Below are positions 1 through 14,225 of a stretch of DNA of 14,754 nt, one piece after another; within the stretch, counting starts at the first letter, position 1; every line of letters begins with the position of its first letter. A program made the translations under genes and the position numbers. The stretch lies in assembly GCA_033764315.1 (NCBI GenBank), contig JANRJA010000001.1, positions 1 to 14,754 of the forward strand, in the 5' to 3' direction. Below the pieces are notes generated by a model. That model ran no database searches, was not told the origin of the DNA, and saw nothing but the letters and a program-made list of their open reading frames with translations. This DNA is from Oculatellaceae cyanobacterium bins.114. Its GTDB lineage: Bacteria > Cyanobacteriota > Cyanobacteriia > Elainellales > Elainellaceae.

Positions 1-140
1 AGAGGCAGGAGCACAAAGCTTTGGTCGGATTCGGGGCTATCTTTCCACTCTTAAAAAGCAGGGGCATCCTCTACTTGATGCCCTAGAACAGCTATTCCTG
101 GGACATCCCATTCCCCTAATTCTTCAGCCTGAGTAGTTAC
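1..140 (+). mobile_element. IS66-family insertion sequence, right end (truncated by window start)
   Basis: Transposase C-terminus runs into the end CCTGAGTAGTTAC (128-140; reverse complement GTAACTACTCAGG), matching the GTAA terminus typical of IS66. Rhs coding sequence starts abruptly at 141. Confidence 0.85.
2..136 (+). CDS. IS66-family transposase, C-terminal fragment
   Basis: Manual translation EAGAQSFGRIRGYLSTLKKQGHPLLDALEQLFLGHPIPLILQPE*; GAxxFxRIRGYLSTLxKQG is the characteristic IS66 transposase C-terminal motif. Confidence 0.85.
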   Translation, partial: EAGAQSFGRIRGYLSTLKKQGHPLLDALEQLFLGHPIPLILQPE

Positions 141-1397
141 GCAACGGGTACAGAGCAGACCGCCTACACCTGGAATGATGAGAATCGCTTGGTTGGGGTG
201 CAGACTGCGGCTGGAGATGTACTTTCTTACGTCTACAACTCGGAGGGTATCCGCACCAGTTCAACGACCAATAGAGCGACGACCGAGTACTTGGTTGATG
301 CCAATCGGGACTATGCTCAAGTTTTGGAGGAGCGAGTCAACGGAAATCTGATCGTCAGTTATATTTATGGGCGGGATCTGATTTCTCAGGAGCGGAGCAA
401 TGTCACATCGTTCTACTTAGTCGATGGGTTGGGGAGTACTACTGCACTAACAGATGTAAGTGGTAATATTACCGATACCTATACTTATGATGCCTACGGA
501 AGAGCGGTTAGTGAAACGGGTAGTACCCAGAATAGCTACCAGTTTGCTGGAGAGCAGTTTGATGAGAATCTAGATGAATATTACTTGAGGGATCGATACT
601 ACAACACAAATGTTGGAAGATTTACTAGAAGGGACTCTTATCCAGGTCATATCTCGAATCCATTAACACTTCACAAATATGTTTATGGGAATATCAACCC
701 TGTTAATCAAATTGATCCGAGTGGTTTAAGTTCCATAACTGCAAGTGAAAGCTCTTGCACGAATTTAATGCTCAATATACTTAACAATATTGGAGCAAGT
801 ATCTCTACTGTAGCTAATCCAACATCCATACAGTTAGCTAAAGCTTGGGGGATTCTATTAGCCGCTGGGATTGGAACAATCTCTTTTCTTGTTCTTAAGG
901 AGATGCAGAGTGATGGAGCAATTGAGTATAAGATTTTACCTGATGCAGAACCTGAACCACAACGTAGAAGAGAGCCAACATCTCCTACTACCTTCCAGGA
1001 TATGAATCAAATGCGGGTACAGGCTCAGGACGCTCCTGGCAATACTTTGGGAGTTCCTATGTACAATGTGCCTGAAGTAGGAGTTACCCTCAGCCAAGTT
1101 TACCAAGGTGTTGGAATACTTTGGCAACAAAGAGATGCGATAAGTGGATGGCTTCCACGGAGTTATGATACAGCTTTTATTAAAGGTATGGCTTATGTAA
1201 CTCAAGCAGCACAAGATATTCAAGAAAATGGTGGCACTTCCGGTCGCGGTGGTGAACAACTGGCAACATACCAATGGGATAGAAATGATGAAAAAGGTAA
1301 TAGAGCAAAAGCTGCTCGTGGCAGTCTTCGGTTTGGAGACAGAAAATACTACAGAATTGATTTTGAAAATCTTCGAGGTCGTAATCTTATCTCTTAA
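141..1397 (+). pseudogene. Rhs/YD-repeat polymorphic toxin, 3' part (Rhs core plus C-terminal tip CT1), cut at its 5' side by IS66
   Basis: Reading frame continues upstream of the ORF-track TTG (189) as ATGTEQTAYTWNDENRLVGV, which is YD-repeat sequence, up to the IS end. Rhs core motifs DGLGST, YTYDAYG, FAGEQFD, YYLRDRYYNxxxGRFTRRD, YVYGNINPVNQIDPSG (DPSG at 714-725), followed by a ~222-aa variable tip. Confidence 0.9.
476..605 (+). repeat. Rhs-core homology block, copy A (inside main Rhs gene), starting with TACCTATACTTATGA
   Basis: By manual alignment ~90% identical to 4374-4472 (minus; 10 mismatches in 99 nt) and to 5521-5647 (plus; 13 mismatches in 127 nt, last 36 nt identical). Confidence 0.95.
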
Positions 1398-1764: not shown

Positions 1765-2553
1765 ATGTCCAAACAAAAACTATTAACTGAAATAACGGTT
1801 GAGCAAGAAGATTTAATACCTGTATATTGTAAAAAATGGCTATTGTCTCAAAATCTGACGGAAGTTGTAAACTATTCAGAAGTCATTGAATTAGTTCAGC
1901 TACTTTATAAAGTGAACAACTATCTGGAACCTGAGATACTATTTTATAGTAGTCCGTTTCAAGCGATTGAATCAGTAAAACAAGATAAAAATCTTCAAAG
2001 TCGTTTAGGTCAAAGCATTCAAAATAAAATTTCCAGAAGAACACTTCACCATCTTCAAGACATAATCAAACAACAAATGAGTAGGGAAATTTTTGTTAGG
2101 ATACGAAATCAGACTTTGTTTTCATTGGTTCCATACGACGTTGAACATCTTAAAAATATACCTAATTACTTTCCATATACAATATTAGAGTGCTTAAGAA
2201 GTCAGCTAGTTATAGATCTTGAAAAAAAAGATTCTCGACAAGATTCAATCAGCCTCGATCAACTTATAAATTGTCTAATCAGACCATCAGAGTGGGCGAA
2301 TTGGGGATGTACGATAGATTTTTGTATTTCAGTTCTGCAGCTGAGTTACGATGTTCAGAAATGGCAGATCCTTAGGAATTTAATTTGTCAAACTGGCTTT
2401 TTAATTCCATGCGAAAAAGTTTGTATTCTTTGTGAAAGACCAAGTAAAATTTCTTTTGATGAGAAGAACTTTCTTCATGCTGAAGGGCAACCCGCTCTTC
2501 TATTTAGAGATGATTACAGAGTTTACGCTCATCACGGTAAACACCCTTCTTGA
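1765..2553 (+). CDS. DUF6745-like protein; candidate immunity protein for CT1
   Basis: N-terminal ITVEQEDLIPVYCKKW and C-terminal CILCERPSKISFDEKNFLHAEGQPALLFRDDYRVYAHHG resemble cyanobacterial DUF6745 proteins. It is the first gene downstream of the Rhs tip on the same strand. The immunity role is inferred from position only. Confidence 0.7.
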   Translation: MSKQKLLTEITVEQEDLIPVYCKKWLLSQNLTEVVNYSEVIELVQLLYKVNNYLEPEILFYSSPFQAIESVKQDKNLQSRLGQSIQNKISRRTLHHLQDIIKQQMSREIFVRIRNQTLFSLVPYDVEHLKNIPNYFPYTILECLRSQLVIDLEKKDSRQDSISLDQLINCLIRPSEWANWGCTIDFCISVLQLSYDVQKWQILRNLICQTGFLIPCEKVCILCERPSKISFDEKNFLHAEGQPALLFRDDYRVYAHHGKHPS

Positions 2554-2648: not shown

Positions 2649-3536
2649 TTACTGCCTGCGCCGACTTGTCTTCTTCGCCCGCTTCAGCAACGCTTTTGCC
2701 TGTTTGCTAGAAGGACCATCAGGAGCATAGTCCTCAAACAAGTCCTCCATCTCACCCCCAGCAATAGCTTGATAACTCATCGAAATCACCCACCACAAAG
2801 GCATCCCTAGCGCGATCGCTAATGCTTGGTGCCTTACAACGGAGTCTTGGAATCCATCGAGTGCTAACAGTTCCTCGTAGTTCGGAAATGGCGTGAAGCC
2901 AATGTAATTGCTATAGCTGTGAGGTTTACGCAAAATCACCTCAACTTCATCTGCCTTCTCCGGTTTACCGAAAGCAGCAGAGAGTTTTTGAGCATCTCCA
3001 CCTTTAATGTCTACTCCTGTTTCGCTCAAGATGGGTTGTCCAGGTTGCCAATCTTGCTCTGCGTAGGTTGTGTATTCATCAACCATGACTCCATCCTGTG
3101 AGAGGTGATACCAGAACTGGGAGTCATCTCGCAAATAAACTGCTAACGCTGGACAGGAGAATTGAGCAGAAAGATGAGTTGCCCAACACACCAAATTTCC
3201 CTCAATCGTCCCGTGATACTGCTCCAAAATCTCATGCGATCGCACTCCTAAACCTCGGATTTTATTCTGCCCCTCCTGAGAATGAGAAAGGGCAAATCTT
3301 ACATGCGCTAGTACCTCATCATGATGTGTCTCGGGAACTCCTATCAAGGCACTTCTCTCATAAGCTTTGCGTAACTTGTCAGAAATGGAAACGCTTTCAA
3401 AACTGTCATCATAAATTACCGTAAAGCCATTTTCTGTAGGAGAAATATAGCTGTTCTGTTTGATAGACGACAGATAGTCTAGAACATCCTTCTGACTGAG
3501 ACCATACAAAGTGAGATTGGTGTATCGAATTCCCAT
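2649..3536 (-). CDS. Hypothetical protein; candidate immunity protein for the orphan tip CT2
   Basis: 295-aa ORF with ATG start and GAGG upstream, 56 nt downstream of the CT2 stop on the same strand. No family recognised. Confidence 0.7.
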   Translation of the reverse strand: MGIRYTNLTLYGLSQKDVLDYLSSIKQNSYISPTENGFTVIYDDSFESVSISDKLRKAYERSALIGVPETHHDEVLAHVRFALSHSQEGQNKIRGLGVRSHEILEQYHGTIEGNLVCWATHLSAQFSCPALAVYLRDDSQFWYHLSQDGVMVDEYTTYAEQDWQPGQPILSETGVDIKGGDAQKLSAAFGKPEKADEVEVILRKPHSYSNYIGFTPFPNYEELLALDGFQDSVVRHQALAIALGMPLWWVISMSYQAIAGGEMEDLFEDYAPDGPSSKQAKALLKRAKKTSRRRQ

Positions 3537-3592: not shown

Positions 3593-4471
3593 CTAGGTCA
3601 GCAAAGCTGCTGCTGGGGATCTAGAGTTTCGAGCAAGAGCAGCCGAAACCTTGACCATCAACTCCTCGATTGCATGAGCGACGAGCGTGGCACTGGCCCG
3701 GATAACAGTAAAGGCAAGGCGTGTATTAATAAGGTCGTACACAATAATTCCCGGCGAGTGATTTCTAACCACAGCAAAATTCGTGCTACCAGGAATAGGG
3801 ACGATTGGTAGAGGAGTATAGCTAGTACCTCGTCCCCAGTTTGTAAGTCCTACATTAGACGAATGCAACTCGTGTTGAGCTTGAGTGAGTTTGTTCTGTG
3901 CGCTTATAATCTGGCTTGATTTGTTTGGTTTGATTTCATATAGTTCATAAATGTCGAAGTCAGCTAGGTCAGGGATTTGACGATTAATGGCTCGTGCCCC
4001 TGGATGTTGTGGATTACCTGTAGCTGTGCGTATTACCCTTAAATAGGTTGGTCTATTAGCTCCACGACTGAATGGTGGACGAGGATCAAAAACACGGGAG
4101 TACCGAAATATTCCTCTTGGATCGCTTAGGGGATTAGTTCTATTGAAAATACCAGCTTGCCCAAGAAAGTGCCATCCAACTATGTTATGAACCATGTTCC
4201 CTTCATTAAGCACACTCAAGTACCCACTGAAATCAACATAACGTACTGGATTTGAGTTGGCGTAGATGTATTTGTTAAGAGTTAAAGGGTCAGTAGGTCT
4301 ACCTTCCCAATCATCTCTTCTAGTAAATCTGCCAGATTCTGAATTGTAGAATCTGGCACGTAGATAGTACTGGTCTAAATTCTCATCAAACTGCTCTCCG
4401 ACAAATTGATAGCTATTCTGGGTACTACCCGTCCCACTAACAGCTCTTCCGTAGGAGTCATAAGTATAGGT
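3593..4471 (-). pseudogene. Orphan (start-less) Rhs core plus C-terminal tip CT2, PD-(D/E)xK restriction-endonuclease-like toxin
   Basis: Frame is open upstream of the ORF-track start (4219): TYTYDSYGRAVSGTGSTQNSYQFVGEQFDENLDQYYLRARFYNSESGRFTRRDDWEGRPTDPLTLNKYIYANSNPVRYVDFSG. An in-frame TGA lies at 4481-4483 and there is no start codon before the DxxG motif. The tip contains GxxVHxxV and PDLAD...ELYEIKP (3929-3973). Confidence 0.85.
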
Positions 4472-4472
4472 A
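4374..4472 (-). repeat. Rhs-core homology block, copy B (inverted), starting with TACCTATACTTATGA
   Basis: Reverse complement aligns to 476-574 at ~90% identity; similarity stops abruptly upstream of TACCTATAC. Confidence 0.95.
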
Positions 4473-4632
4473 CGGAGCTTTCAGAACACTAAAGATCTCA
4501 GCGACCTACCTGCCTTCTATAGTTGAAATGTCACCCACTGCAACATACGACCCTTTTAGATGAGGATGCGATCGCCTTTCTTCAATAGCAGCGATATGCT
4601 GGAGAAGTACATTGAGGGATTAGTGCTAAACC

Positions 4633-5379
4633 ATGACCATCGATGCAACTCAACAATCCCAAACAGTCGCATCCGGCTGGATACCGCCTGAACCACCAAC
4701 GGACTTAATTTTTGATGACGGAGAACCTTTGGAGACTAACCGCCACCGCATTGCGATGAATGTCCTGATTCGTTCACTGCAACAAGCCATGAGCGATCGC
4801 AAAGACTTTTTTGTGGGTGGCAATATGTTTGTCTACTACAGCCGCAATCAGACCATGAACCGTGACTTTCGTGGTCCTGATTTCTTCGTTGTGCTTGATG
4901 TTGATGGTGAACGCGAACGTCAAGGCTGGGTCGTGTGGGAGGAGCAGGGACGCTACCCTGATGTCATTATTGAACTGCTCTCGATCAGCACTGCTACAAC
5001 CGATCGGGGAGTGAAGAAGGATCTCTATGAACGGGTCTTTAGAACCCCCGATTACTTTATTTTTGACCCATTCGACCCCCAATCTTTAGAGGGTTGGCAT
5101 TTGGAACTGGGACGAGGCTACCAACCATTAACGCCAAACGAACAGGGCCGGTTGTGGTGTGAATCCTTACAGCTTTGGATGGGAACATGGCAGGGAGCCA
5201 TTGACCGAGAGCCACCAACAGGTAGTTGTGATTGGTTGCGCTTCTATAGTCCAAAAGGTAACTTAGTTTTATTACCAGAAGAAGCTGCTCAGCAACGAGC
5301 AGAGCAGGCTGAACAACGGCTCACCGCATTGATGGAACGCCTACAGCAGCAAGGTATTGATCCGGGCGAACTACAGTAA
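4633..5379 (+). CDS. Uma2-family (DUF820) putative restriction-endonuclease-fold protein
   Basis: Motifs DDGEPLETNRHRIAMN, FVGGNMFVYY, GPDFFVV, WVVWEEQGRYPDVIIELLS, DRGVKKDLY, YFIFDP, WLRFY and a coiled-coil tail (AQQRAEQAEQR...QQGIDP), typical of the cyanobacterial Uma2 expansion. Confidence 0.95.
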   Translation: MTIDATQQSQTVASGWIPPEPPTDLIFDDGEPLETNRHRIAMNVLIRSLQQAMSDRKDFFVGGNMFVYYSRNQTMNRDFRGPDFFVVLDVDGERERQGWVVWEEQGRYPDVIIELLSISTATTDRGVKKDLYERVFRTPDYFIFDPFDPQSLEGWHLELGRGYQPLTPNEQGRLWCESLQLWMGTWQGAIDREPPTGSCDWLRFYSPKGNLVLLPEEAAQQRAEQAEQRLTALMERLQQQGIDPGELQ

Positions 5380-5512
5380 CACATGAGCCGCATCCCTATT
5401 ACCAAAACTCTAAAGATGAAATTTGGAATCGGTAGAAATCTTGCTTGAGCGATCGCCTCTTTTATACGCAAATCCTACCAGATTCACGGACTAAAGTTTT
5501 ACTGTACGAATA

Positions 5513-5647
5513 CGTCATAGCTATACTTATGACGCCTACGGAAGAGCAGTTAGTGGAACGGGTAGCACTGAGAATAGCTATCGTTTTACTGGAGAGCAGT
5601 TTGATGAAGAGCTAGATGAATATTACTTGAGGGATCGATACTACAAC
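5513..5647 (+). repeat. Rhs-core homology block, copy C, starting within a 7-8-7 palindrome CGTCATA-GCTATACT-TATGACG
   Basis: 5521-5647 aligns to 479-605 at ~90% identity; the inverted arms are 5513-5519 and 5528-5534. Confidence 0.93.
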
Positions 5648-6433
5648 GCGGAGACTGGACGTTTCACAAGAAGGGATGTGTTTGATGGTAATTTGGCAGA
5701 GCCATTATCTCTACAGAAATACATCTACGTTCATGCAAATCCGGTAAATGCGACTGATCCTACCGGAATGTATCAAGAAACAAGTCTGACGGGAGAAACG
5801 CTGCGTCGTATTTGGGAAGCAGATTTGAGAGCTACCCAGTTTGAGAAGGCTGTTAGTGTTATGGGACTGGTTGCACGAGTTGCCGTACAAGCTGCTGAGG
5901 TTGTTGCTCGAGGCTATATTTATGCTCAACAGATCCCTAGCGCAGTGGTGAGATTCCTTGGGATTCCAGCCATTGTTTGGGGACTAGATTTGCCTTATAC
6001 AACTATCCATATTTTGCGTGCCCAAACAGGCTCAGGTTATACAAGTCACAATCAAAAAGGGGAACTGTTTGGTGCGATGCCTCTTCCTTTGCTACTCAGT
6101 CATGGAGGAAATAATGAACGAGGATGGTACAATTCCCAATGCCCCTGTCAAGGAAGACCCAGTGGTTATTGGTGTGATGAGTACCCTTACAATGCAACGT
6201 GGCAGGGTGGTAAGAAGAATTATGATGCTGGACTTGTTTCTATTCAACCAGTACCAGCTAGAGAGCAAAGGGGAACTGGAAGTCAAGCGGCAAGACTATC
6301 GAGCTTTTATGCTGGAGCTATGGTTCCGCGTGGACAAACAACCAATCCTTTAACTTGGTTCATCACTTTTGCTAATCCTGCAACTCCAACAACTTACTGG
6401 ATCGATCGGCAAGGAAATCGTCAGTCTTTCTAA
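5522..6433 (+). pseudogene. Orphan (start-less) Rhs core plus C-terminal tip CT3, NucA/NucB-type DNase toxin
   Basis: Frame reads YTYDAYGRAVSGTGSTENSYRFTGEQFDEELDEYYLRDRYYN upstream of the ORF-track TTG (5627); in-frame TAA at 5492-5494; NPVNATDPTG (DPTG 5756-5767). The tip has CDEYPYNATWQGG...VSIQPV...EQ...Q...LSSFY, matching the NucA/NucB DEYPxASTxQGG signature. Confidence 0.87.
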
Positions 6434-6458
6434 GAAACTCTTAATTAATTTATGCCTT

Positions 6459-7034
6459 ATGTCAGTTCTACTAGAAACCCTAGAACGAATAATGGGTTGG
6501 TTGCAGCAACATACTCCCACACATGCCGCATCGTTTAGACCTGGGCTTAGATACAACGAAATCTTAGAAGCAGTTGGGTCTCTTCATGCAGAACTACCGA
6601 GTGAATTTTTTGAACTTTATCAATGGCGAAATGGAAGTGAAGATGAACAACACACCCTTTTCTATCCCATAATGCAGTTTTCACCTATTGATGCTGCACT
6701 GATGGATAGTGAATGGATTAGTGAGGATCGTTCAGTTGAGGAAGGGGGATTTAAGTATCAAGGCTACCGTCTTTTCCCATTCATGTGTTTTGAGGGGGAT
6801 TATTATGCAGTCGTATTAAATAGCGTAAGGCAACCCACTTCACCAGTTATTTGGATTCCTAAAGCTGACAATCAGGTAATTCCTTGCTACACAAGTATTA
6901 CAAGCATGATGCTAACCTTTGCGGAGTGTTATGAAACAGGAGCTTACTATTTGAATGAACAGGGTTATCTTGAACAGAATATCCAGGAAGTAGCACAAAC
7001 TTCTCGTAAGTATAATCCTGAAATTGCTAATTAA
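6459..7034 (+). CDS. SMI1/KNR4 (SUKH) family immunity protein for CT3
   Basis: Likely start is the ATG at 6459 (MSVLLETLERIMGWLQQH...). RPGL...EI...LPSEFFELYQWRNG and YTSITSMMLTFAECYETGAY are typical SUKH features. It begins 25 nt after the CT3 stop. Confidence 0.88.
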   Translation: MSVLLETLERIMGWLQQHTPTHAASFRPGLRYNEILEAVGSLHAELPSEFFELYQWRNGSEDEQHTLFYPIMQFSPIDAALMDSEWISEDRSVEEGGFKYQGYRLFPFMCFEGDYYAVVLNSVRQPTSPVIWIPKADNQVIPCYTSITSMMLTFAECYETGAYYLNEQGYLEQNIQEVAQTSRKYNPEIAN

Positions 7035-7275
7035 TTTGACACTTCTCAGATTGCTCTAGGAATTGATAGAGAACGGCGGTCGCAGTTCTTGTGATTCTCT
7101 GGTTGTTCACTAATGCAAGTGACACTCCTCATTATCAGATCACGTTAACAACAGCGTAACACCTCAAAGATGTCTGAAAGGCGATCGCCCCCAAACTAAG
7201 CCTCATCGTCGTCTATCACAGACTGTGAAGCAAGCGTTATCTCCGCAGCTGAACTCTCTAGTGCGATCGCCCTTG

Positions 7276-7304
7276 GTAGGTTGGGTTGACGGAGGAAACC
7301 CAAC
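7276..7304 (+). repeat. REP-like hairpin GTAG-GTTGGGTT-N9-AACCCAAC
   Basis: GTAG tetranucleotide followed by an 8-bp stem, ~40 nt from the 3' end of a RAYT remnant; related copies at 9686-9749, 11578-11643 and 11787-11814. Confidence 0.8.
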
Positions 7305-7346
7305 ATTCGCCTATCTCTTATTCATGACTCATATCCAACTTCCTCC

Positions 7347-7454
7347 TTAAACAAAAGGGTGTTTTACTAACTGATGATGCACCGGATTGTAGTGAATATA
7401 ATCCACATGCTGGCTCAAATCATGCTGATCGCGAATTTGGTGCTCCCAAAAGCG
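7347..7454 (-). pseudogene. REP-associated tyrosine transposase (RAYT, HUH/Y1) C-terminal remnant
   Basis: Manual minus-strand translation RFWEHQIRDQHDLSQHVDYIHYNPVHHQLVKHPFV*, matching the RAYT motif RFWEHxIRDxxD...YIHxNPV. The N-terminal part is absent. Confidence 0.85.
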
Positions 7455-7647
7455 GTCTAACGTCTGTTCCTTGGGTCGCTCCGACACGATTGCCCTGTCC
7501 ATCATAAGTTGATAACCGGGAGTGTAATTGAGAGTGCGATCGCCCCAAAATTTAAGTCAGTTGACTACCCAATCCATCAGAAATAAGGAGCCTTGGGCAG
7601 TGTTGAAAAGTTAGGATGAGGAGGGAGTGAGGCTGCAACCCCTCGAC

Positions 7648-7693
7648 AGGTCATGCAAGTTGCTTTGATGAGAATAAGCTGCCTGCATGACCT
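7648..7693. terminator. Stem-loop just downstream of the HU gene (possible terminator or RNA-stabilising hairpin)
   Basis: AGGTCATGCA (7648-7657) / TGCATGACCT (7684-7693), 17 nt from the HU stop. The T-rich tail is on the plus strand only, so the direction is uncertain. Confidence 0.45.
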
Positions 7694-7710
7694 TGTTGTT
7701 TTAGGGGAGG

Positions 7711-7986
7711 TTAACTCACAACTTTTTCTTTAAACAGCTTTCCGGCACTAAAGGCAGGAACTCGTGTTGCTGGAATCGTCATAGTCTCACCTGTCTTAGG
7801 ATTACGACCTTCACGAGCAGAGCGTTCACGGGGTTCAAAAGTGCCAAATCCAACTAAAGTTACCTTTTCTCCAGATGAAACGGCGTCTTGAATGGTTTCT
7901 AGCACTGCACTGAGAATTCGGTCAGCATCTTTTTTGGAGACATCTGCCTTCTCAGCGATCGCATCAATCAGTTCACCTTTGTTCAT
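7711..7986 (-). CDS. hup: Histone-like DNA-binding protein HU
   Basis: MNKGELIDAIAEKA...VTLVGFGTFEPRERSAREGRNPKTGE...IPATRVPAFSAGKLFKEKV; GAGGAG Shine-Dalgarno upstream. Confidence 0.97.
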   Translation of the reverse strand: MNKGELIDAIAEKADVSKKDADRILSAVLETIQDAVSSGEKVTLVGFGTFEPRERSAREGRNPKTGETMTIPATRVPAFSAGKLFKEKVVS

Positions 7987-8157: not shown

Positions 8158-8250
8158 TATAGCAGTCCTAAATCATTTGTGAAATTAGGTGTTTGTGTGT
8201 GTCGCACCCCGGTGGGGTGCGACTCTCACAACCCATTTAGGATTGCTATA
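8158..8250. repeat. Small inverted-repeat element (TATAGCA.TCCTAAAT ends) enclosing a GC-rich hairpin
   Basis: Ends TATAGCAGTCCTAAAT / ATTTAGGATTGCTATA; internal GTCGCACCCC-GGT-GGGGTGCGAC (8201-8223). The right arm is shared with 12787-12844. Confidence 0.85.
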
Positions 8251-8459: not shown

Positions 8460-9560
8460 CTAGCTCAGGAATAAAGCCCGTTCTGCCTGTCTGCGACGAG
8501 TTAAACCTGCTAACACTTGCCCACCTGCCCGATTCCAGCGCAACAGTTGGTCGGCAGCAGCTTGATAATGCCCCTGGTTTAACAGCTTTAGCAGAGTTGA
8601 AGTTGCTAACGCCCGCTCTCCAGCATTATAGGTAAATACGACCAATGCTGAAAATTGATTACTATTCAGAGGCACTTTCACCAAGCGATCGACAGCGGCC
8701 TCAAATCGTTGTAAATCTCGTTTGAGGAACTCTTCAGCTTGAGCCTGAGTAATTTTTTGACCCGGTTTAACCCCAGATGTTGTGCCATAACCAATGGTCC
8801 AAATCCCAACAGCATCTTTATAAGCTGTGAGCGACAATCCTTCAAAGTTTTTCAACAACTGCAATCCCTTTGCGTTGATGTGCTTGACCTCAGGAGTTGG
8901 CGCAGGCTTTGGAGTGGGTGCAGGAGTCGGAGTTGGCGCAGAGCCATATAAGACTACTTTGCCATCTCGCAAGATCTGCACATCTGGACGAAAAACAAAC
9001 CAAGTTGTGAGTCCTTTGATAAAAAGTTGTTTCCCCTGATTATCAACCCCTAACGTAACTTTCAAATGATTATCTGAAACAGGTGCGTATCCTGAAATTG
9101 GAAAAACCGTATTGTTTTGAATCAGTTGTCGTTGATCGGGAGCCAAGCTAGAACCTGGAGCAGTACTTTGCTTTAACCAGGTATCAGACACCGCCTTTAA
9201 GACCCATTCAGATGCGGTAGGTACAGGGGTTGGAGTAGGTGTAGGGACAGGCACAGGAGTAGATACAGGGCTCGGAACGGCAGAGCCAGTTGGTAAGGAA
9301 ACAGGTACCCCATTCTTTAAGAGTTGTATGTCAGATTTATAAACAAACCAAGTATTACGCCCCTTGAAAAAAATTTGCTTACCTAGAGCATCCCGACCCA
9401 GGGTCACTTGAAAGTGGGTGTTTTTAACGGCTTGAATTCCCGCAATGGGTATTTCAGTTCTTGCTTTGATAAATTGTCGCTGATCTTCAGGAAGGGTCGA
9501 TCCTTGCCCTGTACTCTGTTTAAGCCAGCTATCTAAAACAAATCTAATTGCATACACCAT
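8460..9560 (-). CDS. Modular GH24 (phage-type) lysozyme with two N-terminal repeat domains and Pro/Thr linkers
   Basis: C-terminal INAKGLQLLKNFEGLSLTAYKDAVGIWTIGYG (E-x8-D-x5-T triad), NQFSALVVFTYNAG and GLTRRRQAERALF. Two ~85-aa repeats begin DSWLKQST / DTWLKQST, separated by PVPTPTPTP linkers. Confidence 0.92.
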   Translation of the reverse strand: MVYAIRFVLDSWLKQSTGQGSTLPEDQRQFIKARTEIPIAGIQAVKNTHFQVTLGRDALGKQIFFKGRNTWFVYKSDIQLLKNGVPVSLPTGSAVPSPVSTPVPVPTPTPTPVPTASEWVLKAVSDTWLKQSTAPGSSLAPDQRQLIQNNTVFPISGYAPVSDNHLKVTLGVDNQGKQLFIKGLTTWFVFRPDVQILRDGKVVLYGSAPTPTPAPTPKPAPTPEVKHINAKGLQLLKNFEGLSLTAYKDAVGIWTIGYGTTSGVKPGQKITQAQAEEFLKRDLQRFEAAVDRLVKVPLNSNQFSALVVFTYNAGERALATSTLLKLLNQGHYQAAADQLLRWNRAGGQVLAGLTRRRQAERALFLS

Positions 9561-12786: not shown

Positions 12787-12844
12787 ATAGCAATCCTAAA
12801 TGGGTTGTGAGAGGCCCATCTCACAACCCATTTAGGATTGCTAT
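12787..12844. repeat. 26-bp perfect inverted repeat with 6-nt loop (same family as 8158-8250)
   Basis: ATAGCAATCCTAAATGGGTTGTGAGA-GGCCCA-TCTCACAACCCATTTAGGATTGCTAT. Confidence 0.92.
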
Positions 12845-12908: not shown

Positions 12909-14225
12909 ATGTCACAGCAGGAACTTAGTAGTATGTCTATTCGTTTTTTTGCAACGAATCGGGATCAGGATCAGCTGGGTCGCGACTTGAAACGGGATAC
13001 CCGATTAAAGCTTCAGACGGGTGGCTATTACTGGATTGATACACGCGGTTACATGGCTCACTATCTGTCAACAACCGACCCCTCAAAGATGCCCGCCTCG
13101 ACCATTTTCACCAATTCTGAAGCCGAAGTTTTTAAGGTTTTTCTCAATAAACCAGCCGTGAAGCGAGTAATTATTGGAATTCATGGGTTCAATGTTCCCT
13201 TGCAAGGAGCCATTACATCTTTTTCATTGCTAGCAGACATGCTGAAGCAAACTAAGAAATTGGGACCAACCATTGTTACTGATCCAGTTTTAAATATAAA
13301 ACGAAACGCACAAACTCGCCAAATCGAAGAAGTGATCACTGATTGGCGTCATTTAAGTAACTCGGACTCGTCGGAACCCTTGGAACAGATTTTGAAGAAT
13401 TCGGTGATTTGGCGTAAAGTCAAGGATTTAGAACACGTCAATAGTCTGGATGAGCTGAAACAAAAGCAATTTAATCGCTTGGATGACCCTGACGGTGACG
13501 TAACTGCTTTTGTTGGGTTTTCCTGGCCCTCCAATGGCAAAGTGCTCGACTATCAGTTCGATCGCACTGAAGCCGTCTCTAGTGCTCCCATTTTAGGGAA
13601 TTTGATCAGTCGCATTCGCACTCAAAATCCGAGGCTTAAAGTACATGTAATTTCTCACAGTATGGGCAACTACTTGACCTGTCATATGTTGGCTGGGTTA
13701 GTGAATAAAGTGACTGTTCCTCTCGTGGAGGAAGGTAAATCAGACGAAAAAATTAACGCTCAGATTTCCCGTCGAGATCAGGGAGGCGATGATAATTTCT
13801 TTATCGATCGCTACATAATGTTGGCTCCCGATGTAGAACGGCGGGCTGTGACTCAGTGTGATGTAGATGCTATACCAGGAACTCCAGCAGAGTACTTGGG
13901 GCCATTTTATGCGGGGCTATATCACCTGGTAGAGGAAATACATCTGTTTTACTCCGGGTTTGATACTGCATTGCAGGCATCAGTGACTGAAAAAGAAGCG
14001 CGGGAAACATTGGAAAAGGTGAAAACATTCCTTAGTGGGCCAAATCTGGAAAACCGCTGGGAAAGCAGTCTGGGACTAAACCCTCTCCCGCCTCTCGCTC
14101 CTCCCAATATGTATGACCACAATGGCGTAACGCTGACCGATCGCAAACTAGACCACGGTGATTATTTTGATGCTCTGGCTATTGGTGAAAGAATTTCAGA
14201 AATTATTATGTCTTCTAAAGTGTGA
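12909..14225 (+). CDS. Alpha/beta hydrolase, DUF900-like
   Basis: FFATNR, IGIHGFN, GFSWPS, VHVISHSMGN (nucleophile elbow), LAPDV, YSGFDTAL and DHGDYF motifs in the canonical order. Confidence 0.88.
   Translation: MSQQELSSMSIRFFATNRDQDQLGRDLKRDTRLKLQTGGYYWIDTRGYMAHYLSTTDPSKMPASTIFTNSEAEVFKVFLNKPAVKRVIIGIHGFNVPLQGAITSFSLLADMLKQTKKLGPTIVTDPVLNIKRNAQTRQIEEVITDWRHLSNSDSSEPLEQILKNSVIWRKVKDLEHVNSLDELKQKQFNRLDDPDGDVTAFVGFSWPSNGKVLDYQFDRTEAVSSAPILGNLISRIRTQNPRLKVHVISHSMGNYLTCHMLAGLVNKVTVPLVEEGKSDEKINAQISRRDQGGDDNFFIDRYIMLAPDVERRAVTQCDVDAIPGTPAEYLGPFYAGLYHLVEEIHLFYSGFDTALQASVTEKEARETLEKVKTFLSGPNLENRWESSLGLNPLPPLAPPNMYDHNGVTLTDRKLDHGDYFDALAIGERISEIIMSSKV

Follow-up and report, generated by a model that had tools for sequence, protein, structure and literature searches.

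The three Rhs toxin cassettes in a stretch of cyanobacterial DNA begin at what are probably core-type sites of a dedicated Xer-like tyrosine recombinase (positions 5511-5536, 469-494 and 4454-4479). The stretch, called the window below, comprises the 14,754 nucleotides of contig C133 from a 6.6-Mb assembly of 251 contigs that is 90.7% complete. Comparison with related genomes makes ongoing site-specific exchange reasonably likely, and these bacteria probably swap their toxin tips site-specifically, not solely by homologous recombination. Both catalysis at the sites and present-day activity we infer from comparative sequence.

A sequence-only reading of the window had proposed that the YTYD codons of the Rhs core double as a Xer/dif-type site for a host Xer-like enzyme acting in trans. 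Comparative evidence favours the site itself, through the linkage of a recombinase clade to the cassette boundaries (8/9 copies), the match of one arm and the register of the boundary. The enzyme part of the proposal changes, in that the candidate is not the housekeeping XerC/D of the host.

Window layout and the cassette boundary

The final 83 codons of the Rhs core (YTYD...DPxG) are present three times in the window, each time continuing into a different C-terminal domain that is followed by a probable immunity gene. The copies form repeats of 229-244 nt with 72-81% identity, which start at a shared motif, CTATACTTATGA. The features are the following.

1..136, plus strand: 3' end of an IS transposase ORF (ORF end 134-136) and IS terminus (...CCTGAGTAGTTAC)
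137..476, plus strand: Rhs core (YD-repeat) coding sequence upstream of site A, matching residues 939-1174 of a same-genus Rhs protein
469..494, plus strand: candidate site A, with left arm TTACCGATAC (coding), spacer CTATAC and right arm TTATGATGCC
477..1397, plus strand: cassette A, with an 83-aa core stub (477-725, ending DPSG), a C-terminal domain (726-1394) and a stop codon
1765..2553, plus strand: 262-aa ORF with a match to DUF6745 (Pfam PF20530, E 2.3e-7)
2649..3536, minus strand: 295-aa ORF, no family match in Pfam
3593..4471, minus strand: cassette B, inverted relative to A and C, with stub 4471-4223 and a C-terminal domain running to the stop at 3593
4454..4479, minus strand: candidate site B, read on the minus strand, with left arm AGCTCCGTAC (non-coding), spacer CTATAC and right arm TTATGACTCC
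4633..5379, plus strand: gene of the Uma2 family (putative restriction endonuclease) between sites B and C (Pfam PF05685, E 1.7e-18)
5511..5536, plus strand: candidate site C, with left arm TACGTCATAG (non-coding), spacer CTATAC and right arm TTATGACGCC, holding the 7-bp repeat of 5513-5534
5519..6433, plus strand: cassette C, with stub 5519-5767, a toxin domain matching NucA/NucB DNase (PF14040) and a stop at 6431-6433
6369..7034, plus strand: SUKH-1 (SMI1/KNR4) immunity-type gene of cassette C (Pfam PF09346)

The IS at 1..136 interrupts the Rhs fragment that runs into copy A; its 44-aa transposase piece matched no Pfam family. Contig C58 starts with the identical IS end and an 8-bp target duplication (GCAACGGG) and bears the preceding 80 aa of the fragment. 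Because Rhs core coding continues upstream of site A, copy A is a long-stub Rhs fragment, preceded in its IS-split state by only ~190 core codons (a match to the RHS_repeat family was found on the C179 paralogue). B and C are orphans, with stop codons 3 (B) and 8 (C) codons upstream. As in Rhs displacement arrays, the orphans consist of a core fragment (a stub ending in DPxG), a variable toxin and an immunity gene.

The C-terminal domain of cassette A matched no Pfam family. Position suggests that the 262-aa ORF at 1765..2553 is the immunity gene of cassette A and the 295-aa ORF at 2649..3536 that of cassette B. The C-terminal domain of B shares 27% identity with that of the G289 orphan o4, and that of C is related to the domains of the stub on contig C83 and of the G289 orphan next to the recombinase. 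A homologue of the Uma2 gene (70% identical) lies upstream of a cassette pair in the same-genus genome G001. Cassettes A (plus strand) and B (minus strand) are convergent with inverted sites, and the same layout occurs in G001:C1, G427, G352 and G289. Thus alternative C-terminal segments are inverted and bounded by repeats inside coding sequence, as in a shufflon.

All three cassettes in the window start at CTATACTTATG. This 11-mer occurs seven times in the 6.6-Mb assembly, every time at the start of a stub; the four further stubs are on contigs C179, C21, C83 and C35. Five of the seven stubs start at one and the same position, as do stubs in G001, G289 and G352. No invariant run in the six full stubs is longer than CTATACTTATG (11 nt), and the second longest measures 5 nt. 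Invariant columns number 106 of 249 in these stubs, yet only 10 of 83 third-codon positions are invariant, and four of those ten fall inside the 11-mer. The synonymous positions of Y-T-Y are invariant in all seven copies. When codon columns were shuffled, a run of 11 was reached in 246 of 20000 trials.

The sequence-only reading had described the motif accurately at the level of letters. CTATACTTATGA is present exactly three times in the window, at 479 (plus strand), 4458-4469 (minus strand) and 5521 (plus strand), preceded by the hexamers cgatac (A), ccgtac (B) and tcatag (C). At copy C, CGTCATA (5513-5519) and TATGACG (5528-5534) form a perfect 7-bp inverted repeat around the 8-bp spacer GCTATACT (5520-5527). 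The left arm is non-coding, as an in-frame stop lies 8 codons upstream, and the right arm is Rhs coding sequence in the frame S-Y-T-Y-D-A. A bare repeat of this kind is not rare in such a window: perfect 7-bp inverted repeats with 4-10 nt spacers number 20, compared with 6.8 ± 3.5 in 30 shuffles. In place of the proposed 7 + 8 + 7 layout, 10-bp arms around the 6-bp CTATAC are likelier, a layout drawn by analogy with the palindromes of homologous recombinases described below. Around CTATAC, the left arm of site C (TACGTCATAG) and the reverse complement of its right arm (GGCGTCATAA) agree at 7 of 10 positions by visual count.

The two sides of the boundary behave differently. Third-codon positions are conserved on the coding side, as noted above, and the left arm is weak or not conserved at most sites. 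The sequence-only reading had itself cautioned that the left arms of A and B are only weakly palindromic, and both scored no better than random. By eye, site C is the only strongly palindromic cassette end. The flank ACG(T/C)CATAG directly before the 11-mer is common to C, C83 and C21 and is absent from B and C35; further upstream the flanks of C, C83 and C21 are unrelated. The two arms do not co-vary, because C83 and C21 keep the left arm of C despite different right arms. In the lineages of G289, G352 and G422 no conserved or symmetric left arm was found, either by eye or by score.

A Xer-like recombinase beside the stubs and its candidate sites

No recombinase gene or remnant was detected in the window at E<=1. 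A search of the whole genome with Pfam PF00589 gave six matches, one of which lies beside a stub, on contig C35. This recombinase is encoded by a 291-aa ORF (C35:316-1191; PF00589 match at C35:673-1158, 125 bits), which starts 70 nt from the stub at C35:245 and is divergent to it. The same divergent arrangement was found at G001:C46, G001:C1, G289:C40, G289:C66, G352:C2, G427:C33 and G422:C5, the last four genomes belonging to another cyanobacterial family. Overall, a Xer-like recombinase lies ~30-110 nt from a stub boundary in eight of the nine genomic copies of the clade, from six cyanobacterial genomes; the linked copies descend from one ancestral arrangement and are therefore not independent. 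The copy at G001:C46 is 88% identical to that on C35 and matches PF00589 (115 bits, E 3.2e-33), PF02899 and PF13495. The copy at G001:C1 is 55% identical to that on C35, and its 5' end is apparently shortened or frameshifted. The ninth copy, at G001:C3, is a pseudogene beside parAB with no Rhs stub nearby. Stub adjacency has been retained as the recombinases diverged to 54% identity, and the C-terminal toxin domain adjoining the recombinase varies from locus to locus.

In a search of 401 genomes of the class, the clade copies formed the top tier (384-610 bits), followed by a next best score of 328. A quick tree supported the clade with an SH-aLRT of 99; it includes two metagenome sequences without a stub. 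The two nearest metagenome loci, L136 and L137, showed neither a stub nor a clear site, and at L136 the clade member lies beside parAB. None of the 80 loci kept from a metagenome scan with the recombinase alignment had an Rhs stub; nearly all of them came from a more distant tier.

The C35 enzyme and its relatives combine the tyrosine-recombinase catalytic domain (PF00589) with an N-terminal SAM-like domain, and the residues of the catalytic motifs (ATGAR, GKG.KTR, HWFRH, LGH and Y) are conserved. R150, K177, H241, R244, H267 and Y276, which we take to be the catalytic residues from the motifs of the family, are invariant in an alignment of five sequences. The best family and structure matches were XerD, XerC and XerA, and the structure of XerH was also matched. 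Several known classes were compared with the enzyme and set aside. Scores for XerD and XerC proper were far below the cut-offs (TIGR02225, 184-190 bits vs 329.6; TIGR02224, 172-184 vs 335), as were those for integron integrases (TIGR02249, 93-115 bits vs 265; NF011946, 44-62 vs 435). A housekeeping Xer with a single dif per replicon does not fit, because homologues (E<=1e-20) occur in only 6 of 41 relatives; the motif is present seven times, always at Rhs stubs. The genome also encodes two serine recombinases, neither on a stub-bearing contig.

More distant homologues from outside the clade, taken from the metagenome scan, offer a view of what the sites of such enzymes may look like. Upstream of these genes, 16-110 nt before the start, one type of 10-6-10 palindrome recurs as the best one, with the consensus TGCAAGATAA-N6-TTATCTTGCA. 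The pattern WTAA-N6-TTAW, with arms matching at >=7/10 positions within 160 nt upstream, was found at 19 of 64 homologue loci and at 0 of 55 control regions; note that the pattern was chosen after the palindromes had been seen. The arm reads TTATGATGCA at loci L152, L159 and L162 and TTATGATGTA at L146. Rhs stubs read TTATGATGCC or TTATGATGCT at the corresponding place, and the Rhs codons TTATGATGCC agree with the homologue arm TTATGATGCA of one subfamily at 9 of 10 positions. The comparison thus supports a match between the palindrome arm of the homologues and the Rhs sequence TTATGATGC. YD-repeat protein constraint alone could conserve TAT GAT GCN. A synonymous alternative spelling of the coding arm TTATGATGCC is TACGACGCG.

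Non-Rhs sites served to build an arm matrix, in which the selection pattern fixes the final four positions. By this matrix the Rhs arm GGCATCATAA is in the top 4e-5 of genome 10-mers. Genome-wide the matrix is unspecific, with 993 positions scoring >=4.5 and the Rhs sites outside the top 40, and the score was therefore used only at the pre-defined register. Within the window, site C ranks 2nd of 14729 positions, with its left arm in the top 0.8%. Site A ranks 5th of 14729, with a right arm in the top 4e-5 and a random-like left arm. Site B is the weakest of the three (rank 51 of 14729), its right arm being in the top 0.4% of genome 10-mers. At A, at B and in the lineages of G289 and G352 the left arms are random-like, and these sites have only the coding arm.

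The register of the boundary agrees with such a layout. In three lineages, the sequence shared by main gene and orphans begins 0-3 nt upstream of a 6-bp spacer that precedes TTATGA, and 6 bp is the spacer length of the homologues' palindromes. The spacer is CTATAC/CTACAC in G000/G001, CTACCG in G289 and CTCCCG in G352; it is uniform within a recombinase-bearing genome and differs between genomes, including at non-synonymous positions. In G289, a 36-nt leader located between the recombinase gene and its stub recurs at every orphan.

Arrays with and without the recombinase differ in their sequence. In the four recombinase-bearing genomes (22 fetched stubs), TTATGAYGC was present in 18/22 stubs, each genome had 1-2 spacer types, and the stubs were mostly short and uniform. 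In the 24 recombinase-free genomes (62 fetched stubs), TTATGAYGC was present in 10/62, with up to 6 spacer types each and mostly long, variable stubs. TTATGAYGC together with short, uniform stubs and an unvarying 6-bp spacer may thus serve as a marker separating recombinase-driven from homology-driven Rhs arrays.

Rearrangement, proposed mechanism and competing explanations

A trace of rearrangement comes from the genomes of two species of one genus. The tip carried by the 7064-aa main gene of G352 (338210-339825) is found inverted, beside the recombinase, in G427 (15376-16987). The breakpoint is at the start of the stub, and on either side the two genomes are collinear, across the main gene body and across the recombinase. 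Such a difference would be expected if the main-gene site and the site next to the recombinase had recombined by inversion. Mapping of the crossover in G427 versus G352 does not distinguish site-specific from homologous exchange, because all stubs are ~80% alike in their 5' part. In G289, G352 and G427, and probably at G001:C46, the orphan next to the recombinase runs opposite to the main gene.

The alignment of the stubs makes it plain that homologous recombination or gene conversion is at work on them too. Stubs are mosaic, with C83 alternating between C21-like and A-like patches. Their identity is highest at the 5' end and falls from 5' to 3', and two stubs of G427 are identical over 93 nt from the site before they diverge.

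In the site layout that we propose by analogy with the palindromes of the homologues, TTATGAYGCN, which encodes Y-D-A in the Rhs frame, would be one binding arm. The preceding 6 bp, CTATAC in the window, would be the strand-exchange spacer, for which identity between partner sites would be required. The other arm would be Rhs coding sequence where the site belongs to a gene body, and a short non-coding leader where it belongs to a silent cassette. Recombination of a body-linked site with an inverted silent site would flip the intervening DNA and fuse a new stub-toxin-immunity cassette to the Rhs body, and direct sites would allow cassettes to be excised or inserted as circles. The 250-nt stub would supply the remainder of the core and would probably permit branch migration or gene conversion after the first exchange. 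For the window, the recombinase encoded on C35 would act in trans, because this only clade recombinase of the genome lies next to another stub.

A broader reading, which we put forward tentatively as a nearly balanced possibility, is that of a dedicated tip-exchange platform, in which a Xer-derived enzyme acts at a site in the last YD repeat, whole cassettes are inverted, excised or inserted, and site-specific exchange forms a hybrid with homologous recombination. In such a hybrid the enzyme would carry out just the initial strand exchange, using the single good arm, after which the junction would move along the stub until host enzymes resolve it. A sharp boundary, a weak second arm and a 5'-to-3' gradient of identity with conversion tracts (93 nt in G427) would then all have one explanation.

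The main rival is a founder junction spread by homologous recombination, which we consider unlikely. By integrating an island or a cassette into an Rhs gene at this sequence, the recombinase would have made the first junction of non-coding sequence with CTATAC. All displacement and inversion of cassettes, and the copying of the junction, would since have been the work of RecA-dependent exchange in the 250-nt stubs, through circles of the type proposed by Jackson et al., and the sites would be inherited scars. Reasoning from the circular intermediates in the part of that article considered here (PMC2935791), a crossover of a circle inside the stub hands the circle's own 5' boundary to the displaced tip, and one founder junction could therefore reach every orphan without further recombinase action. 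The mosaic stubs that are most alike at their 5' ends, the 93-nt identity followed by divergence in G427 and the mostly poor left arms all fit such a history, and the same 36-nt leader on every G289 orphan and beside the recombinase gene is what common descent predicts. Yet adjacency of recombinase and stub has been kept despite 54% identity and a changed toxin. The spacer is uniform within recombinase-bearing genomes and different between them, including at non-synonymous positions, and the recombinase-proximal orphan lies in every case in the opposite orientation to the main gene. None of this would be required of a passive scar.

Homologous recombination alone appears considerably less probable still. 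Here the shared boundary would be a chance legacy of a single truncated core fragment, the palindrome at C would be fortuitous, and the recombinase would have an unrelated mobile or plasmid-resolution function. Such an account can point to the model published for Rhs tips, as given in the consulted part of PMC2935791, to the ~7 perfect 7-bp inverted repeats expected by chance in the window, to the two clade members that lie beside parAB without an Rhs stub, and to the many cyanobacterial Rhs arrays whose orphans occur without such a recombinase. It is at odds with the eight of nine clade copies that start 30-110 nt from a stub boundary, with a boundary register that equals the 6-bp spacer of the homologues and an Rhs arm that matches one of their subfamilies at 9/10 positions, and with the restriction of long variable stubs and mixed spacers to arrays without the recombinase. 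Finally, some other DNA- or RNA-level role of the 11-mer without recombination, such as a translation or processing signal for independently expressed orphans, would suit the invariant Y-T-Y synonymous positions (7/7) and the orphans' want of obvious start codons at the boundary, but is very improbable given that the spacer sequence varies between lineages while its position is kept, that the boundary showed neither a start codon nor a ribosome-binding motif, and that the recombinase linkage would be left unexplained.

The system in the genome studied here looks decayed. On C35, an IS interrupts the recombinase-proximal stub after its 35th codon, copy A is likewise IS-split, and a search with the G001 protein found no full-length Rhs body in the assembly, which is 90.7% complete. 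What the window holds may therefore be relic sites of a system that G289 and G352 have in intact form.

Relation to known systems and significance

In the IncI shufflon (Rci, sfx), inversion at short sites within coding sequence provides a constant N-terminal part with alternative C-terminal segments. Shufflon sites have one conserved and one variable arm, and the tyrosine recombinase gene adjoins the invertible cluster. Going by this general description, the Rhs loci are similar in their inverted C-terminal segments, the adjoining tyrosine recombinase and the pairing of one conserved with one variable arm. In contrast to the shufflon, the unit at the Rhs loci comprises an entire toxin-immunity cassette (1.5-3 kb) that includes a homologous stub of 250 nt, direct copies occur as well, and the recombinase is Xer-like by its family scores.

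Among Xer/dif systems, single-recombinase forms with the site next to the gene exist, and some elements integrate at dif. The likeness lies in the best matches to XerD, XerC and XerA, the 10-6-10 palindrome of the homologues beside the gene, and the inner ATAA/TTAT with a 6-bp spacer at the Rhs site. The differences are a score of ~186 vs 330 bits, the presence in 6 of 41 relatives, and seven sites per genome in toxin cassettes as opposed to one at the replication terminus.

Integrons consist of the integrase IntI, the attI site and attC cassettes. The integrase gene and the first cassette point away from each other, the site lying in between, and promoterless cassettes are expressed only upon relocation. 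The Rhs loci resemble them in that the recombinase is divergent from the first cassette with the candidate site in between, and the position of expression would be fusion to the Rhs body. Unlike in integrons, the reading frame must be kept, inverted cassettes are the rule beside the recombinase, inspection by eye showed no attC-type hairpins, and the integrase models score below their cut-offs.

The part of Jackson et al. 2009 (PMC2935791) used here describes displacement of Rhs C-terminal regions, with orphan tips, core fragments of variable length and a proposal of circular intermediates. Silent cassettes of core fragment, toxin and immunity gene near an Rhs gene are common to these enterobacterial loci and those analysed here, and homologous exchange of the core is evident here as well. 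In contrast to that account, the fragments here start at one fixed nucleotide and a tyrosine recombinase abuts one of them. The combination of variable core length and absence of an integrase, by which that text characterizes displacement, was not found in the lineages studied here; the recombinase-free cyanobacterial arrays do follow its variable-length pattern.

A further parallel is rAID-1 of Bacteroidales, where, according to the portion of the preprint considered (bioRxiv 10.1101/2025.05.03.651265), a predicted tyrosine recombinase lies beside co-oriented orphan immunity genes that serve in defence. Judged by that description, both systems have a recombinase adjoining a row of short genes that relate to interbacterial toxins, and in both there are conserved motifs between the genes. 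They differ in that the cassettes here carry a toxin tip and a core stub, and the site is within Rhs coding sequence.

In the sections of the literature consulted, the acquisition and switching of tips in Rhs and other polymorphic toxins has so far been attributed to homologous recombination. Full-text literature searches gave no report of a recombinase linked to or acting on Rhs tips, and the main text of a 2023 survey of gene-altering inversions (PMC9881135) contains no mention of Rhs, YD repeat, toxin, cyanobacter or polymorphic. If the link between recombinase and sites holds, tip switching in these cyanobacteria would be a programmed, reversible process, amounting to phase or antigenic variation of weapons used between bacteria, and a new gene family would join the short list of gene-altering inversion systems. 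If the tentative platform reading is true as well, one delivery body of 7000 aa would be re-armed from a silent library, by the first recombinase known to act on Rhs loci and through a hybrid of site-specific and homologous recombination. The link would also imply a compact enzyme-site pair, with the site embedded in coding sequence.

Palindromes beside Xer-like recombinase genes and an arm-matrix match in a toxin domain

A 10-6-10 palindrome was found 16-110 nt upstream of the Xer-like recombinase gene at 19 of 64 homologous loci, versus 0 of 55 controls. Its consensus is TGCAAGATAA-N6-TTATCTTGCA. The recombinase group concerned, which is widespread, includes metagenome loci L139-L212 and locus L111 (G036), and looks like a single-recombinase system with a dif-like site adjoining the gene.

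In scoring with a matrix built from the palindrome arms of non-Rhs sites, two further matches stand out, each ~620-700 nt past the stub start:

Window 6204-6229: AGGGTGGTAA GAAGAA TTATGATGCT, within the toxin domain of cassette C
Contig C179 of the same genome (G000), 5385-5410: a similar match

The window match outscores the real boundaries. This internal match in the cassette C toxin domain could be a second site, or could have arisen by chance.

Recombinases and replicon context

Three loci bear on the setting of the recombinases and the Rhs main gene:

L120 (G001:C3), 4202-7801: Rhs-linked clade recombinase adjoining parA/parB, without an Rhs stub
L136, 2447-5065: clade recombinase in the same setting, also without a stub
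L125 (G001:C48), 454-2430: ResT/TelK-type telomere resolvase gene, separated by ~6 kb from the Rhs main gene's 3' part

The two stubless members adjoining parA/parB suggest that the clade originated from plasmid-resolution recombinases. In G001, a genome of the same genus, the proximity of the telomere resolvase gene to the Rhs main gene hints at a linear replicon.

In G427, a genome from another cyanobacterial family, the main Rhs gene (L216, G427:C33, about 13750-13830) carries a 37-nt tandem duplication ~100 nt past the site and a stop codon 37 codons past it; the gene is therefore probably frameshifted. On the same contig, the junction at about 16987 (L133) lacks ~65 nt between stub and recombinase leader relative to the congener G352. 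One endpoint of this deletion falls at T|TATGATGC, where the putative spacer ends on its right side, and the deletion could reflect an aberrant cleavage-joining event.

Cassette A and other features of the window

Window 1-144 and contig C58:1-379 (G000): Rhs fragment interrupted by an insertion sequence, ending ...CCTGAGTAGTTAC, with an 8-bp target duplication, GCAACGGG
Window 8212-8250: second copy of the hairpin below (90% match), 4.5 kb from the first
Window 8460-9560, minus strand: 366-aa protein with a phage-lysozyme domain
Window 12787-12844: perfect 26-nt hairpin, ATAGCAATCCTAAATGGGTTGTGAGA, with a 6-nt loop
Window 12909-14225, plus strand: DUF900 hydrolase of 438 aa, whose Tle3-like match is weak

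The insertion sequence divides a single Rhs fragment between the window and C58, which makes copy A a long-stub orphan rather than the terminus of a full-length gene. The phage-lysozyme-domain protein and the DUF900 hydrolase, both near the Rhs cassettes, may be additional antibacterial effectors. With its two copies, the hairpin resembles a small palindromic repeat element.
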